A DNA stretch of 27,185 nucleotides, taken from positions 1 to 27,185 of the forward strand of contig JAYUGC010000125.1 in assembly GCA_043767805.1 (NCBI GenBank), given 5' to 3'. Below the pieces are notes generated by a model. That model had not been told where the DNA came from. It searched no databases and worked only from the letters and a program-made list of their open reading frames with translations. The position numbers and the translations under genes were made by a program. Of this stretch, positions 1-23,261 are shown piece after piece (position 1 is the first letter of the stretch; every line of letters starts with the position of its first letter). The stretch comes from Pseudomonadota bacterium. Its GTDB lineage: Bacteria > Bdellovibrionota > FAC87 > UBA2466.

Positions 1-63
1 GATTGCTGGTAACCATTCCCCGCTAAACCCCAGATGCAGACTCAATAAGGGGAAGTAAAAAAA

Positions 64-245
64 CTTCCCCATCTCGAGGCCGTGGTCATTAAAGCTCATA
101 ACCTGTGTAAAAACACGTGGTCGCCCCGGTTAATGCTTTAGGCTTCCTGCCGAAGCAGGCATGCACACCGCACTAAGAGAGGGCTACCGGTTAAGAACTC
201 GTAGGTCAGAGCATTTTTCTGACTCACGCACCAGACAGGGAAGCC
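64..245 (-). ncRNA. ssrS: 6S RNA
   Basis: ~180 nt on the minus strand, closed by 5'-CUUCCC...GGGAAG-3'. It contains the motifs GGUGUGCAUGCC...GGAAGCCUAAAG and CAGGUU...CACGGC that I recognise from deltaproteobacterial 6S RNAs. A sigma70 promoter lies directly upstream. Confidence 0.88.
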
Positions 246-16479: not shown

Positions 16480-17394
16480 ATGAAGGAAGCTCTACAGAAG
16501 CTGGCCCAGCGCCAAATCTACGTGGGGACTTCGAGCTGGAAATACCCCGGCTGGAAGGGCTTCGTTTACTTGCGCCCCTACCGCAGTGAAAAGGCCTTCA
16601 ACGAAACTTGCCTCGCCGAGTACGCGGAAACTTTTTCCACGGTAGGCGTGGATCACACCTACTATGCGTGGCCCACCGAAAAAGGGTTTGAGAAATACGT
16701 TTCGCAGGTTCCGAACGCCTTTCGTTTCGGCATGAAGGTAACGGAGAAGATCACCGTCTTTAAGTACCCCAAATTGTCCCGTTACGGAAAAGACGCGGGA
16801 AAGATGAACGAAGACTTCTTGAACGCCGGGCTCTTCGCCGATCAGTTTCTGAAGCCGCTTCGCGCTCACAAGGAACAAGTCGGCCCGCTGATGCTGGAGT
16901 TTTCTCAATTTCATCCTGGAATGCTGGAAAGCGGCGGTGAGTTCGTCGCCCGTCTCGATGCCTTTTTCACCGATTTGAAATCGGAAACGGAGTTTGAGTT
17001 CGCCATCGAAATCCGCAACGCGAACTGGCTCAAGGTCCCTTACTTCGAGTGCCTCGCCCGCCACGGTGTTTCCCACGTCATGAATAGCTGGACCAAAATG
17101 CCGTCGCTAGACGAGCAAAGAGAGGCCGCCGCTCCTTTCGACTTACCGAATTTCGTGGCGCGCGTGCTGCTTCAGCCCGGAACGAAGTATCAGGAGGCCG
17201 TCGAGGCTTTCTCGCCGTACAATAAAGTGTGTGAGCCTCAGCCCCAGCTTCGGGCCGCGGCGGCGGAGATTATTTTGCAGGCGCAGCGCATGGGAAAACC
17301 GGCTTATGTTTTCGTCAATAACCGCGCGGAAGGCTCGGCGCCTTTGACCATCGCAGCCATTCTCGATCTCGTGGAGAAGCAATCGGAAAAATGA
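16480..17394 (+). CDS. DUF72 domain protein
   Basis: IYVGTSSWKYPGWKG..Y, EYA..F.TVGVD.TYY, FRFGMKV...IT, EIRN and YVFVNNRAEG.AP motifs. Confidence 0.93.
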   Translation: MKEALQKLAQRQIYVGTSSWKYPGWKGFVYLRPYRSEKAFNETCLAEYAETFSTVGVDHTYYAWPTEKGFEKYVSQVPNAFRFGMKVTEKITVFKYPKLSRYGKDAGKMNEDFLNAGLFADQFLKPLRAHKEQVGPLMLEFSQFHPGMLESGGEFVARLDAFFTDLKSETEFEFAIEIRNANWLKVPYFECLARHGVSHVMNSWTKMPSLDEQREAAAPFDLPNFVARVLLQPGTKYQEAVEAFSPYNKVCEPQPQLRAAAAEIILQAQRMGKPAYVFVNNRAEGSAPLTIAAILDLVEKQSEK

Positions 17395-18290
17395 AAGATC
17401 GGCGCACACTTCTCTTTTTGATGCTGGCGCTCCTTCCGCTTGCCGCGTATTTCGCGTTTCGAAGCGGCGGCGTTCCTGCCTTGGAACCGGACAATAAGCC
17501 CGTCCTCGCAGCTCGCGAGCCTTCCCCCACCCCCAAAAAGCTCGTCGACAACCTCGCTCCGCCCAAGCCAAAATCGGTAGCCACGGCGCCAGCGCCCACC
17601 GAAGACGATCGACCTGAAAATGTAGTGTCGTTCGTAGTGGAAGAGGGGGTAGCGATCGCGTTCGGAGACGTGATTCTCGGCGCCCCCGAACAGGAAGGCA
17701 TTAAGACCGGGTTTTATCAGCTGGCGCCGCCAACGCCCTGGGAAACACCCGAGATTCCGTACGCCATCAATGGCGACGTCGATGAGCCCGAGCGAGTCCT
17801 GGAAGCCATCCGTCACATCGAAAAAAAGACGGGCGTACATTTCGTTCTGTACGTCGACCAGCCCGACGGCATTCTCTTTCAAAAAGGCCCGAAGGATTGC
17901 TGGTCTACCCTTGGCCGCCAAGGCGGCTTGCAACCCATCCGCATCGCCCGTCGCTGTGGTTGGAAAGAGATCACCCACGAAGTGCTCCATGCGTTCGGCT
18001 TCCTGCACGAACAGTCCCGCTTCGACCGCGACAACTACGTGGAAGTGCTTTGGGACAACATCGACAGGGAGTACCGTCCCCAGTTCGAAAGACTCCCGCG
18101 AGAGCTTCTCGGAGGCTTAGTCGGGAAGCCTTTCGACTACCATTCGGTCATGCTCTACAACACGGGCATTTTCGCCAAAGACAAGCAGCCCAATATGCGC
18201 ACGAAGACGGCCGAGCCCATCGCCCCGTCCGAAGACGGTTTGAGCGAGCTCGATATCGCCAAGGTCAAAGCGCTCTTTCGGCTCGATTAA
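17391..18290 (+). CDS. astacin (M12A) family metalloprotease, N-terminally anchored or secreted
   Basis: HEVLHAFGFLHEQSRFDRD zinc motif and FDYHSVMLY Met-turn. Confidence 0.95.
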   Translation: MKDRRTLLFLMLALLPLAAYFAFRSGGVPALEPDNKPVLAAREPSPTPKKLVDNLAPPKPKSVATAPAPTEDDRPENVVSFVVEEGVAIAFGDVILGAPEQEGIKTGFYQLAPPTPWETPEIPYAINGDVDEPERVLEAIRHIEKKTGVHFVLYVDQPDGILFQKGPKDCWSTLGRQGGLQPIRIARRCGWKEITHEVLHAFGFLHEQSRFDRDNYVEVLWDNIDREYRPQFERLPRELLGGLVGKPFDYHSVMLYNTGIFAKDKQPNMRTKTAEPIAPSEDGLSELDIAKVKALFRLD

Positions 18291-19622: not shown

Positions 19623-21566
19623 ATGACACGCTTGGTTCTCATCGCCGGACTTCTGGTAACTCTCGCCGGCGCGCCGCCGGCCGCCAAACGACGTCATCAA
19701 GCCGAGGAAGGCAAGCTCCCCCCGACCAAAAGCGGCCAGACCACGACGTCGCCGACAAAGGAAGAGAAAACCCTTCCCGGGTTTTCCGAGATTCGGGCTA
19801 CCGAGAACGGTAAAGGCGTAGGTCAACTGACAGGCTCGCCGTCACGTCCCCATTTTCTCACGGGAAGCGATCGCCTGGGTCTCGCCAAGCCCTGCGATCA
19901 CAAGATTCCGCTAGAGCAGCTATTCGCGTTTCCCCACCCGACCGATTTGCAAAACGCGGCGGAAGGACCGGCCTATTTAGCCGAGGGCAAACTTTCCCAG
20001 ATCACGGCGGAAGGAAAAACGCCGGTGACCGTTTTCTCGGGGACGACTTCCCTATTCCGGGTTAGTCCCGACGGCCATGCGATTGCCGGCGCTTCCGAGG
20101 GCACCACGAAATCGACTTTGCACTTTCGCCAATCCGGTCCGGCCCGAACGCCGGTGGAAATCCCGGGTGTCGTGCTCTCGATGGAATGGAAGCCTCCCGC
20201 GGGGGATCTCCTGCTCAGCGTCGGATCGGCGGACGGCTTTCAGCTCTATCGCTTGGCGCCGGGCGCCGCTCAGCCTTCTCCCGGGCAAAAGCTCGACGGC
20301 CTCGCCTATGTGACCGATGTTTCCCCCGACGGCAACCAAGCGGCCTACACGATTGAGCGTTCCGACGTACGCAGCGAGATTTGGCTTTGGGATCTCACGA
20401 CGAATCAAACTAAGCGGTGGCTGAAAAGCAAAGGCCTTGCCCGCGCCGGAAAGTTCAGCGGCGATTCGAAGGGACTCTTTTTTATCGACGACGGCAAGAC
20501 CGGGCACGCGAAGCTATATTACGCCGCCATGAAGGATCCAGAGACCACGCGTCTCATCGCGGGCGGGAAGCCCGAAGTGCAGAGCTTCACTTTGAGCCCT
20601 AGCCGAAACACGTTGGCCGTGGAGACGAGTGAAGACGGCTACAGCCGGCTTACCGGAGTCACGTTAGATCCCGCGGGCCGCATCCGCGGACAATGGGTGG
20701 CGCCGAAGTTGTCTCCGGGAGTCATCGAGTCTCTCGCTTTTACCGACGATTCTCGTCTCTTTTTCGTTCGTAGCTCTACTCAAGAGCCTCACGAGATTTG
20801 GGCCGCGGACCAAGGCCAAACGGCGAAATGGTCTCGCTTCTACGGCGGCACGGTTCCCCCCGATTGTTGGGCCGGCGAGCTCGCCGTAACCTACCCGACC
20901 TTCGACGGCAAAGCGGTACCCGCCTTCCTCTATCCGTCCTCGACGCCGTTAACGTCGGCCGGCGCGGTTTTCCTGCAAGGCGAGCCCGAAGAAACGTATC
21001 GCCCCGGTTTTCATCCGCTCGTGCGGTACTTGATCGAGCGCGGAGTGACGGTGATCGCGCCCAATCCGCGGGGACGCGCGGGTTATGGACGCGATTGGCG
21101 GCTGCTCGGCGAAGGCAGCCACCGCGCGCAAGCCGCGCGCGATCTTGCCTGGGCGGGAAAATGGCTCGAGAAAGAAAAACGGGCCGACGCAAACCGCATC
21201 GGAGCCGTGGGCTCCGGCTATAGCGGCTGGGTCGCGCACGCGGCCGATGAGTTAGTTCCCGGTCAATTCGCCTCCGTTACTTTGACCGATCCTTGGCAGG
21301 CGCCGGGGAATGGTTTTATCGGAGGCCGGCCTTTCGAAGAGCGAAAGCAGCAATCCACGCAGCTGCGCGAAGGGGTCGCGGCGATCGTCGCGGCGGGGGA
21401 TAGCGCGTCGCTAACTCCGAAAATGATTTTTGGTCCCGCGCAGACGGGCGCCCGCCTTCCCGCTTCCGAACAAGCGGCGGCCGATCTCACGACCGCTTCA
21501 GGCCGCACGGCGCACGCTCGCGCCGTCGTTTCTTTTCTGGAGTCCAAAAAAAGAAAGGGCCCCTGA
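19623..21566 (+). CDS. S9 (acylaminoacyl peptidase-like) homologue with beta-propeller; catalytic motifs degenerate
   Basis: Signal peptide, SPDG repeats, YPTFDG..VPAFLY, APNPRGRAGYGR and DANRIGAVG. QGEP replaces HGGP and GSGYSG replaces GxSYGG. Confidence 0.85.
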   Translation: MTRLVLIAGLLVTLAGAPPAAKRRHQAEEGKLPPTKSGQTTTSPTKEEKTLPGFSEIRATENGKGVGQLTGSPSRPHFLTGSDRLGLAKPCDHKIPLEQLFAFPHPTDLQNAAEGPAYLAEGKLSQITAEGKTPVTVFSGTTSLFRVSPDGHAIAGASEGTTKSTLHFRQSGPARTPVEIPGVVLSMEWKPPAGDLLLSVGSADGFQLYRLAPGAAQPSPGQKLDGLAYVTDVSPDGNQAAYTIERSDVRSEIWLWDLTTNQTKRWLKSKGLARAGKFSGDSKGLFFIDDGKTGHAKLYYAAMKDPETTRLIAGGKPEVQSFTLSPSRNTLAVETSEDGYSRLTGVTLDPAGRIRGQWVAPKLSPGVIESLAFTDDSRLFFVRSSTQEPHEIWAADQGQTAKWSRFYGGTVPPDCWAGELAVTYPTFDGKAVPAFLYPSSTPLTSAGAVFLQGEPEETYRPGFHPLVRYLIERGVTVIAPNPRGRAGYGRDWRLLGEGSHRAQAARDLAWAGKWLEKEKRADANRIGAVGSGYSGWVAHAADELVPGQFASVTLTDPWQAPGNGFIGGRPFEERKQQSTQLREGVAAIVAAGDSASLTPKMIFGPAQTGARLPASEQAAADLTTASGRTAHARAVVSFLESKKRKGP

Positions 21567-21583
21567 TAAACAGGAGCCCTTTC
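21546..21583 (-). terminator. intrinsic terminator oriented for the minus strand
   Basis: GAAAGGGCUCCUG-UUUAU-CAGGGGCCCUUUC followed by U7. The single U-G pair is a C-A mismatch on the plus strand. Confidence 0.88.
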
Positions 21584-21819
21584 GAAAACGGCTTTGGAAT
21601 ATGTTTTGTGTCGTCAGTGTTGTTGCTTAGTTGTCGTCTCGTTGTGCTCTAGTTGTTTATCTAATGTGTCCTAAGTTGTGTCTCTCGGGTGTCGTACTCT
21701 AGTTGCTATCTCGTTGTGTCGTCGTTTGAGTTTCAAAGTTGTCGTACTGTGATGTTTGCTTTTGTGTTTTGTATATTCCCGCGCCGTGTCCTTGTGTCGG
21801 GTTGTTGCTACCGTACGAG
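21546..21819 (-). ncRNA. candidate sigma54-dependent A/C-rich repetitive small RNA (~270 nt)
   Basis: Bounded by a sigma54 promoter and a terminator, with no ATG/GTG on this strand. It contains 11 CAAC and 7 GACAC motifs and a long-range closing stem. Confidence 0.75.
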
Positions 21820-21828
21820 AACTCTTAA

Positions 21829-21846
21829 TTGCAGTGCGTGTGCCAA
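21829..21846 (-). promoter_or_regulatory. sigma54 promoter
   Basis: TTGGCACACGCACTGCAA (GG-N10-GC), predicted start ~21819. Confidence 0.85.
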
Positions 21847-22292
21847 GGTCATAGGCTCACGATCATTGAAGAAATACAGATGTCGAAAGAAGGCAGAAGC
21901 TTAAGCTTCTGACACCCCCACCCCCCGAAAACGTAAGTGGTTGAAACCAGACGGCTGAACCTGAATACAGTTGAGACACAGGGTTTAAGCCTGATTGGAT
22001 ACAGACTCCACACCAATTGGGAAAAAGAGTTGGGACTTTAGACCCTTAGCCTGTATTCCAGGGTGCGAAAAGACCGTCATAAAGCGGGCACTTCGGCTAA
22101 GTCTTTATTTTCACGTGGGTTTTGGATGCCCGTCCACACGCATCTGGAAGAGGAAATAGGGCGGCAGGCTCACTCCGCCTTGGCTCGCGCCCGTACAAAG
22201 GTAGTCGTCGCGGCAAGGCGCCCCGTCTCCGCAAGCGCGAAGGCCTGCGGGCCGTACCTGCTCTTTTAAGCAGGCTGGAAATGAGGAACAAC

Positions 22293-23261
22293 TTACCCTC
22301 CGAACTCGAAGAAGGCGTCAAAGCCAATGCGTTGGATCGCGACCGGCGCCCGCGTGAAACTCATGCCGTAGCGAGCGCGCAGGGCGATGGTGAGCACCTC
22401 GTTCATCGAAAGGCGATAACCGACGGTGACGAGCCCGAAGAGGGTCGACATGTCCATCGGTGTGGCATAGCCGAGTTCCGGAGGAATGTCGTTGAAGCTG
22501 AGGCCCATGGAGTACTGAATGCCGCCGCCCACTTCGAAACGCTCGATGAGGTAGCGGACTTGCGCGTTTACATCGAAGAAGCCGAACTGAAGCTGCTTCC
22601 CGTTCGTATTCCCGATCCCTTGCACCATGGTGTAGTTGGTCTCGACGTGGAACGCGAGGCTCGGGCCGGAGAAAATTCCGATGTGCGCACCGACCGAGTA
22701 GCCAAAGCCCGTGTACACGTCGGGGCTGAGGTCCGTGGTAAGAATGGATAACTCGGGCGCAATGTGGAGCCCATAAAAGAACGACTGCTCGCGCCGAAGG
22801 AGAAGACCTTCATCCTTAGGGACGCGCAGACGATTCGAGGGGCGCACTCGCTCACGAGGCACTTCCTCCTCGTCCTCGTCTTTCGCCACTTTCTTATCTG
22901 GATCGTTGCCGCGCGAGGCTTCACTCAAGGCCTCTTCGGCGACCCAGCCGTCGACGACGCCGTCCTCGAGCTCCACTTCGATGTGATGGTAACGATCCTT
23001 GCGCTCGCCTTTTTGCGTGACGATGGTGCCCTTCGGCAAACGTCCCAGACTATTGGACTTCGGGGAAGGCTTCTCCCGGAGATCCGTCTCTTTGGTGATT
23101 TGACCGGCGTCTCCCGCGCTCTCCGCTCGCGCGAGTGCCGTGAGCGCGACGGCCGCGAGAACTACGAGCGCGAAAAGACCCCGACGAACTCGATGTGGCG
23201 CGTGTGCGGGAACATGTCCAACGGCTGAACTTTCTGAAAGGTGAAGTTCTGTTTCAGACAT
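22293..23261 (-). CDS. SH3-domain plus outer-membrane beta-barrel protein
   Basis: Signal-like helix, bacterial SH3 (TDLREKPS....LGRLPKGT.V.....YHHI.....DGWV), acidic linker, and amphipathic strands ending in AFFEF. Confidence 0.78.
   Translation of the reverse strand: MSETELHLSESSAVGHVPAHAPHRVRRGLFALVVLAAVALTALARAESAGDAGQITKETDLREKPSPKSNSLGRLPKGTIVTQKGERKDRYHHIEVELEDGVVDGWVAEEALSEASRGNDPDKKVAKDEDEEEVPRERVRPSNRLRVPKDEGLLLRREQSFFYGLHIAPELSILTTDLSPDVYTGFGYSVGAHIGIFSGPSLAFHVETNYTMVQGIGNTNGKQLQFGFFDVNAQVRYLIERFEVGGGIQYSMGLSFNDIPPELGYATPMDMSTLFGLVTVGYRLSMNEVLTIALRARYGMSFTRAPVAIQRIGFDAFFEFGG

Follow-up and report, generated by a model that had tools for sequence, protein, structure and literature searches.

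Does a stretch of minus-strand DNA that opens with a sigma54-type promoter, runs for about 270 nucleotides (nt) without a start codon and closes with a terminator encode a regulatory RNA, and what might such an RNA do? The question was raised by an earlier note on positions 21546–21846 of a 27,185-nt stretch of DNA (hereafter the window; contig JAYUGC010000125.1 of assembly GCA_043767805.1, phylum Bdellovibrionota), which had proposed a small RNA (sRNA) presenting CAAC and GACAC repeats in one unstructured loop as a sponge for some partner molecule. According to our analysis the locus is a predicted, previously undescribed sRNA gene of one order of the Bdellovibrionota. The existence of the gene and its architecture are well supported, and we infer its transcription from the sigma54-type promoter, its decoy action and its partner. 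The reading that we favour, with a probability of about one half, is that the RNA is a multivalent decoy (sponge) for an RNA-binding protein.

Extent, promoter and composition of the sRNA gene

The predicted sRNA comprises about 274 nt of the minus strand (21546–21819), beginning at the predicted sigma54 start and including the whole U tract. The promoter, TTGGCAC-ACGCA-CTGCA, reads on the minus strand at 21846–21830 as the earlier note had it, with the −24 GG at 21844–21843 and the −12 GC at 21832–21831, and it deviates by one mismatch from the sigma54 consensus TGGCAC-N5-TTGCW. Transcription from such promoters begins about 12 nt past the −12 GC, and the start at 21819 was derived from this distance. 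The genome encodes rpoN as well as at least 17 full-length sigma54 enhancer-binding proteins.

From 21819 to 21546 the 274 nt contain neither ATG nor GTG, in agreement with what had been claimed, and a single TTG. The hand-counted composition was likewise borne out, positions 21601–21780 holding 47.8% A, 11.1% U, 25.0% C and 16.1% G, and so was the contrast with GC-rich surroundings (G+C 43–45% at the locus versus 58–67% in the flanking genes). The sRNA carries the 11 CAAC and 7 GACAC motifs that had been counted, 9 and 5 of these within 21601–21780; dinucleotide shuffles of the latter segment (n = 1000) gave means of 3.9 CAAC and 2.2 GACAC, and the observed numbers were reached in 6 and 28 shuffles, respectively. 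The five longer duplications reported for the tract were all found in place.

Secondary structure: leader, closing stem, loop and terminator

A conserved 5′ leader block, AACCCGACACAAGGACA (21787–21803, minus strand), lies directly 5′ of the closing stem in alignments A2 and A3. Within it AAGGACACGGC is invariant across the first seven members; the block takes the form AAAGAAACGGC in one genus, and the short, divergent forms lack it.

The long stem that had been predicted to enclose the repeats, formed by the 5′ arm ACGGC-GCG-GGAAUAU (21773–21787) and the 3′ arm AUAUUCC-AAA-GCCGU (21588–21602), both on the minus strand, was obtained in the minimum-free-energy fold as well as in the centroid fold. 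The whole sRNA folds with z = −4.0, and none of 200 shuffles folded as well. Covariation, which the note had suggested as a check on this stem, was also evident, as an equivalent stem with different helix sequences was present in 20 of the 21 members. When the CGGC/GCCG anchor was removed, cognate arms paired with a mean of −7.98 kcal/mol, compared to −4.47 kcal/mol for arms taken from different genomes. Beyond the anchor the helix differs by lineage (GGAAUAU/AUAUUCC, UAGAAUAGUA/UACUAUUCUG, AGGUGUAAC/GUUAUCACCU). The anchor itself is mostly conserved, with UGGC/GCCA in one member and a G-U pair in two, and 95.5% of the cells are paired in alignment A3.

Between the arms extends a loop of about 170 nt (21603–21772, minus strand) with the array of repeated units, eight by regular expression. 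The view that the repeats lie in an unstructured loop held across 20 RNAs, in which the folding energy of the loop was not below that of dinucleotide shuffles (mean z +0.36) and ranged from −0.02 to −0.15 kcal/mol per nt.

The intrinsic terminator (21546–21583, minus strand) consists of a stem at 21583–21553 with 13 pairs, 8 of them G-C, and a loop of 5, followed by the T7 tract (U7 in the RNA, 21552–21546). It fits the minus strand only, as had been stated, and overlaps the stop of the convergent peptidase gene, which ends at 21566. In 23 aligned members seven of nine terminator pairs have changed on both sides and 92.4% of the cells are paired; the covariation score was reached by none of 500 shuffles.

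Distribution within the order

A BLASTN search returned a full-length homologue with 80% identity in a genome of the same genus, and weak matches in a second family of the order. A covariance model of seven sequences (R1), which starts after the −12 element and therefore excludes the promoter, matches the window at 21546–21828 with 209.9 bits. It gave exactly one match in 23 of the 38 genomes of the order, and detected no sRNA among the 113 other genomes sampled from the phylum (151 sampled, 38 in the order). The sole R1 match outside the order, in G149 (E = 0.005), was a plain terminator behind a coding gene.

Fifteen genomes gave no R1 match, and in these the syntenic place downstream of a gene for a TrmA-like methyltransferase was inspected. 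Eight of them have a sigma54 site there, together with a CA-rich array and a terminator, the promoter being part of the search rule in these cases; the forms are more divergent, and by eye two of them seem shorter. In six further genomes (G003, G010, G033, G016, G028 and G030) the retrieved sequence showed nothing or ended too early, and in G009 (73% complete) there was no methyltransferase match. With 23 genomes identified by R1 and eight by synteny, the sRNA family is thus present in 31 of the 38 genomes of the order, which is the outcome of the scan of relatives proposed in the note.

Directly 5′ of the sRNA the promoter element [CT]TGGCA[CT]-N5-NTGCA was present in all of the 21 loci compared, a result independent of R1, which begins after the −12 element. 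A sigma54-type element was also seen within one further covariance-model match beyond these 21 loci, and was not seen at the partial match in G025. A loose scan of DNA in a named genome collection, using the promoter followed by N20–50 and GGACACGG, produced at least 120 loci; only two of the 80 for which DNA was at hand matched R1.

These data bear on the suspicion that the locus is a non-functional intergenic minisatellite beside a chance promoter-like site. Tandem units of about 12 nt can come from slippage, and the promoter pattern alone is, by arithmetic, expected about 17 times by chance in a genome of this size. However, 31 of the 38 genomes combine promoter, stem, array and terminator at one syntenic place, over a wide divergence, and selection appears to act on the half-sites of the units (see below), which makes this explanation hardly credible.

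The note did not recognise a described family, and this was upheld: no Rfam family matched the locus at the gathering threshold, only terminator-level noise was returned up to an E-value of 10 over 21400–22350, and no account of such an RNA was found in the full-text literature searched, subscription-only literature being outside its scope. The family can be modelled and annotated now, and is a candidate for an Rfam family.

The repeated unit and its lattice

The CAAC part of the motif given in the note stands, whereas the repeated unit had to be corrected to R-CAAC-N2-3-GA on a lattice of about 12 nt. Family-wide, no unit has a C in front of the C, A takes the third position in 63–80% of the units, and the commonest 8-mers are CAACUUGA, CAACUUAG and CAACUAGA. 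Distances between unit starts peak at 11–13, 23–24, 34–38, 46–50 and 57–61 nt, with none at 15–20 nt and one at 28–32 nt. In the window GACAC falls where GA precedes CAC or CAAC, and for this reason it is probably a by-product of adjoining units. By regular expression (CANC-N2-3-GA) the 21 loci compared have 4–10 units per RNA, and the RNAs are 201–287 nt long.

Among close relatives the half-sites (CANC and GA) differ at 39 of 379 positions (10%), compared to 146 of 776 (19%) for the middle and spacer bases. Fisher's test on substitutions in half-sites versus elsewhere gave p = 1.6e-4 over 10 pairs, a value that overstates the evidence because the pairs share sequences and ancestry. By this comparison the half-sites are under selection, and the freedom of the middle bases suggests that the two half-sites are recognised by a protein rather than by pairing with an RNA.

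The sRNA locus is the sole site of the 4.52-Mb genome with at least four CAAC-N2-3-GA units in 120 nt when both strands were searched. Eleven weaker clusters on a 12-nt lattice elsewhere in the genome were judged by eye to be chance matches in ordinary G+C-rich sequence. A pattern of three units was also run against 401 genomes of the phylum. In the order it matched the sRNA loci of seven genomes, and elsewhere 23 loci were examined, 22 outside the order and one elsewhere in G034; these are regarded as coding repeats or chance, since they lie in open frames of 93–634 codons and have no sigma54 site. One of the 23 showed repeats of a similar style with an unlike unit, in another family of the phylum (G210, L225 1490–1610, minus strand); here the leader of a gene for an HU-like DNA-binding protein has about seven tandem CA-rich units of 13 nt (AGCCARAAAUAAC), which stand directly before the ribosome-binding site.

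The free middle bases also bear on the possibility that the sRNA acts by base pairing, either its single-stranded 5′ block (AACCCGACA..AAGGACA) or the units serving as seeds for mRNAs and the array as a spacer or a chaperone platform. In most members no other stretch of primary sequence is conserved as well as the 5′ block, and a single-stranded 5′ end together with a terminator and U tail is typical of many trans-acting sRNAs. On the other hand, the block is missing from divergent members that keep promoter, array and terminator, and the middle bases of the units are free to vary, with a drift like that of the spacers, which leaves only 4+2 base pairs per unit with a fixed partner. An array complementary to the units was found on neither strand of the genome. 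Hfq (PF17209) was not detected in any of the 38 genomes of the order, among them 28 with a completeness of 90% or more, whereas control genomes matched; ProQ was not found in the genome of the window. Taken together, we consider a base-pairing sRNA unlikely. The GU-rich RNA that had been listed among the possible partners is improbable for two of these reasons, namely the spacer-like drift of the middle bases and the lack of a complementary array in the genome.

Upstream DNA and RNA-library contigs

When the 21 upstream regions were compared by eye, conserved DNA was recognised at 21861–21920 (minus strand). It includes TCAATGATC (21869–21861) and ACATCTGT (21883–21876) and, about 50–90 nt upstream of the −24 element, the palindrome CAGAAGCTTAAGCTTCTG (21911–21894) and GGGGGTGTC (21920–21911), all on the minus strand. 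The TCAATGATC, ACATCTGT and GGGGTGTC elements and the palindrome recur upstream in many genomes, again by eye, and GGGGTGTC-like elements in other genera. In the genome of the same genus the flanks GGGGTGTCG...CGACACCCC are kept and the palindrome is different. The conserved elements are possible candidates for activator or IHF sites. The region of GGGGGTGTC and the palindrome (21894–21920) may serve as an activator site, or it may form a hairpin in an RNA, the latter being still conceivable because the palindrome differs in the same-genus genome.

As a sign of transcription, contigs (not raw reads) of four sequencing runs from different studies, RNA or putatively RNA, were aligned to the locus. 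Contigs 90–99% alike to the sRNA were present in all four runs; contigs derived from close relatives came from the RNA libraries of three studies, and two lie wholly inside the predicted sRNA, with lengths of 194 nt (21589–21769) and 202 nt (21594–21791). The flanking genes had no cover in these contigs, which was not counted as evidence. We regard the contigs as a weak hint of transcription.

Candidate partners

Protein partners named in the note were an RRM, cold-shock, KH or Hfq-like protein. Of these the Hfq-like protein, a partner of the CrcZ kind, is unlikely since Hfq was found in none of the 38 genomes. In addition, R3H/KhpB was not found in the genome of the window. CsrA is present in 32 of the 38 genomes of the order, and absent from all four genomes of one genus (completeness 77–94%), all four of which have the sRNA.

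The genome holds four RRM proteins, three of them with glycine-rich tails, one cold-shock protein and two KhpA-like KH proteins, which are 68% identical and have the GXXG intact in both. One KH gene is in the rpsP operon. The second encodes a protein of 83 amino acids (L183 1492–1743, minus strand, i.e. contig C62 of G000), and is situated between sdhB and a gene for an FHA-GGDEF protein in at least six genomes of the order. Exactly two KhpA-type genes occurred in 14 of 14 sampled genomes of the order, compared to one in 74 of 79 matching genomes outside. The distribution of the second KhpA-like gene matches that of the sRNA, which makes its product a putative partner, as a lead only. In a preprint KhpA and KhpB are reported to be global RNA binders in bacteria that lack Hfq and ProQ, and a KH/R3H groove is reported to hold a C-rich 10-mer (10.64898/2026.10.12.757534). 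Such a groove would be compatible with a unit of about 12 nt, which proves nothing for the RNA described here. The candidate partners, all of them leads only, are thus the second KhpA-like KH protein and the glycine-rich RRM proteins and, less specifically, S1 and the cold-shock protein.

The RNA might alternatively be a decoy or substrate for the machinery of RNA decay or translation instead of a dedicated regulator: S1 or the 30S subunit, as a mimic of a CA-rich enhancer, RNase E/G, or Rho. The tract is CA-rich, G-poor and unstructured, S1-dependent enhancer sequence is CA-rich as well, and the HU-like gene of G210 described above likewise has a leader of CA-rich tandem repeats. An S1-dependent enhancer is mentioned in a further preprint (10.1101/808485). 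Yet the bipartite site is conserved and the 12-nt lattice strict, both of which point to a binder with sequence specificity, and S1 and the RNases are universal, whereas the sRNA is confined to one order. The units have no YC dinucleotides, which Rho prefers. We therefore hold a role of this kind to be quite improbable.

Proposed mechanism

The protein sponge is favoured because the anatomy of the sRNA is that of known multi-site decoys. This class is characterised by an activator-controlled promoter, an accessible array of short sites, a drifting number of units and a strong terminator; the sRNA has a sigma54-type promoter, an accessible array of conserved sites, a drifting unit number, a strong terminator and one gene per genome. 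According to the proposal, an autonomous gene for a non-coding RNA of about 270 nt would be transcribed by sigma54 RNA polymerase with an enhancer-binding protein, and the transcript would end at the intrinsic terminator. The long-range stem would close a loop that remains single-stranded and displays 4–10 bipartite R-CAAC-N2-3-GA sites about 12 nt apart. When the activator fires, the sRNA would accumulate and titrate a single-strand RNA-binding protein off its mRNA targets. From the 12-nt register one would expect each unit to take up a single binding module, so that approximately one protein or dimer may be bound per 12 nt.

Several observations weigh against this proposal. Two contigs span the predicted start, namely a 241-nt contig of an RNA library (21683–21909), which begins around the palindrome and GGGGGTGTC, and a contig of a doubtful RNA run (21770–21848); they reflect either carried-over DNA or transcription that sets in further upstream, and in the latter case tell against a clean start at 21819. 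In one genus the forms are short and degenerate, and few of their units are canonical. In the genome of the window there were no other clusters of sites that would mark possible target mRNAs, and no paired sites upstream of the genes for the four RRM proteins, the cold-shock protein, the two KH proteins and one CsrA. As for the partner, the coincidence of KH paralogue and sRNA weighs little because it represents one evolutionary event among kin, and the presence of RRM proteins does not discriminate, as they occur in 147 of the 151 sampled genomes of the phylum.

A more specific version of the protein sponge, which we find decidedly doubtful, would be that in an order without Hfq, ProQ and KhpB the sigma54-dependent sponge RNA is read by the order-specific second KhpA-like KH protein, one unit per dimer, alone or with the canonical KhpA, as a new type of global post-transcriptional switch. 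If true, a bacterial KH (or RRM) protein would here for the first time have a decoy RNA dedicated to it, and this protein class would gain a defined recognition code.

Gene neighbourhood

The gene order around the sRNA is kept: ArsC-like, flavoprotein, TrmA-like methyltransferase, in some cases a predicted membrane protein, the RNA, an S9-type peptidase in convergent orientation, and DnaJ/CbpA-like. In the window the S9-type (prolyl-oligopeptidase-type) peptidase gene occupies 19623–21566 on the plus strand, convergent to the sRNA. Together with a gene for an astacin-type metallopeptidase (17391–18290, plus strand) it flanks the DnaJ/CbpA-like gene. At the far end of the window a 6S (SsrS) RNA gene was identified (62–244, minus strand; RF00013, 99.6 bits, full-length model), which was the sole match at the Rfam gathering threshold.

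The neighbourhood raises the possibility that the sRNA is a cis-acting leader of the DnaJ/CbpA-like gene, operating by protein-dependent termination and read-through in the style of the trp leader and TRAP. In 16 of the 21 loci the DnaJ/CbpA-like gene follows downstream of the sRNA and shares its strand, and in six loci without the S9 gene the sRNA ends 50–211 nt ahead of it, a seventh such case being visible. In 13 of the 21 loci, however, including the window, the convergent S9 gene of about 2 kb is interposed, and the terminator is strong and conserved. Moreover, in G008 (L022 / L165) the sRNA module, from promoter to terminator, is inverted relative to the conserved neighbours, an arrangement that fits an autonomous unit, although the contig is short and an assembly error is possible. 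A cis-acting leader is on this evidence very improbable.

Comparison with known decoy and repeat RNAs

CsrA, Hfq/Crc and RapZ each have known decoy RNAs; to our knowledge, none has been described for KH or RRM proteins, which are emerging as global RNA binders of bacteria without Hfq and ProQ. For such a protein the sRNA family could provide a natural ligand, with a bipartite site in fixed 12-nt register in 4–10 copies, through which the protein and its recognition might be identified. The family is also a predicted case of sigma54-controlled regulation by RNA in a lineage that has been little studied and is largely uncultured, within a phylum known for its predators.

Several known systems share traits with the sRNA. 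GlmY of the Enterobacteriaceae is a sigma54-dependent decoy of RapZ that acts by protein mimicry and titration, not by pairing, and the likeness is that of a sigma54-linked sRNA with a decoy mode, established for GlmY and proposed here. GlmY differs in being a structured, single-site mimic of GlmZ without a repeat array, belongs to another phylum and has no similarity to our sRNA in sequence or by Rfam. In the trp leader, with its 11 (G/U)AG triplets bound by TRAP, and in ToxI, a regular array of short sites is read by an oligomeric protein, and many units of the present sRNA have UAG or GAG before A. The period is 12 nt here, as against 5–6 nt for TRAP and about 36 nt for ToxI. Units with UUGA, AUGA and CCGA are equally common, which sets the sRNA apart from TRAP sites, although no search aimed at the TRAP family was made. 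Unlike in ToxI, the units of about 12 nt are imperfect and there is no adjoining toxin gene, the neighbours being the S9 peptidase, DnaJ-like and methyltransferase genes.

Further parallels are the CsrB and CrcZ families. With CsrB and RsmX/Y/Z the sRNA shares many copies of a short protein site in a number that varies between species, and there is one such RNA gene per genome here. It has three GGA in the window, and 1–4 in 20 of 21 members, the remaining member having eight in a stretch that extends past the promoter. The sites are not in hairpin loops, the loop being unstructured. The promoter is of the sigma54 type instead of the GacA type, and in one genus CsrA is absent (0/4) where the sRNA is present (4/4). 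CrcZ and CrcY of Pseudomonas are similar in having a sigma54-type promoter, several A/C-rich single-stranded sites, a length of a few hundred nt and a terminator, and presumably in the logic of an activator-controlled decoy. In contrast, AANAANAA occurs 0 times in the sRNA of the window and 0–4 times in 20 relatives, and runs of four ARN triplets are absent from the window sRNA. There is no Rfam match, Hfq is missing from the order (0/38), and the site is CAAC-N2-3-GA on a 12-nt lattice in a closed loop. The sRNA therefore resembles CrcZ and CsrB in outline and departs from both in motif, partner and Rfam model; judged by its sequence, it is a new RNA family that belongs to neither.

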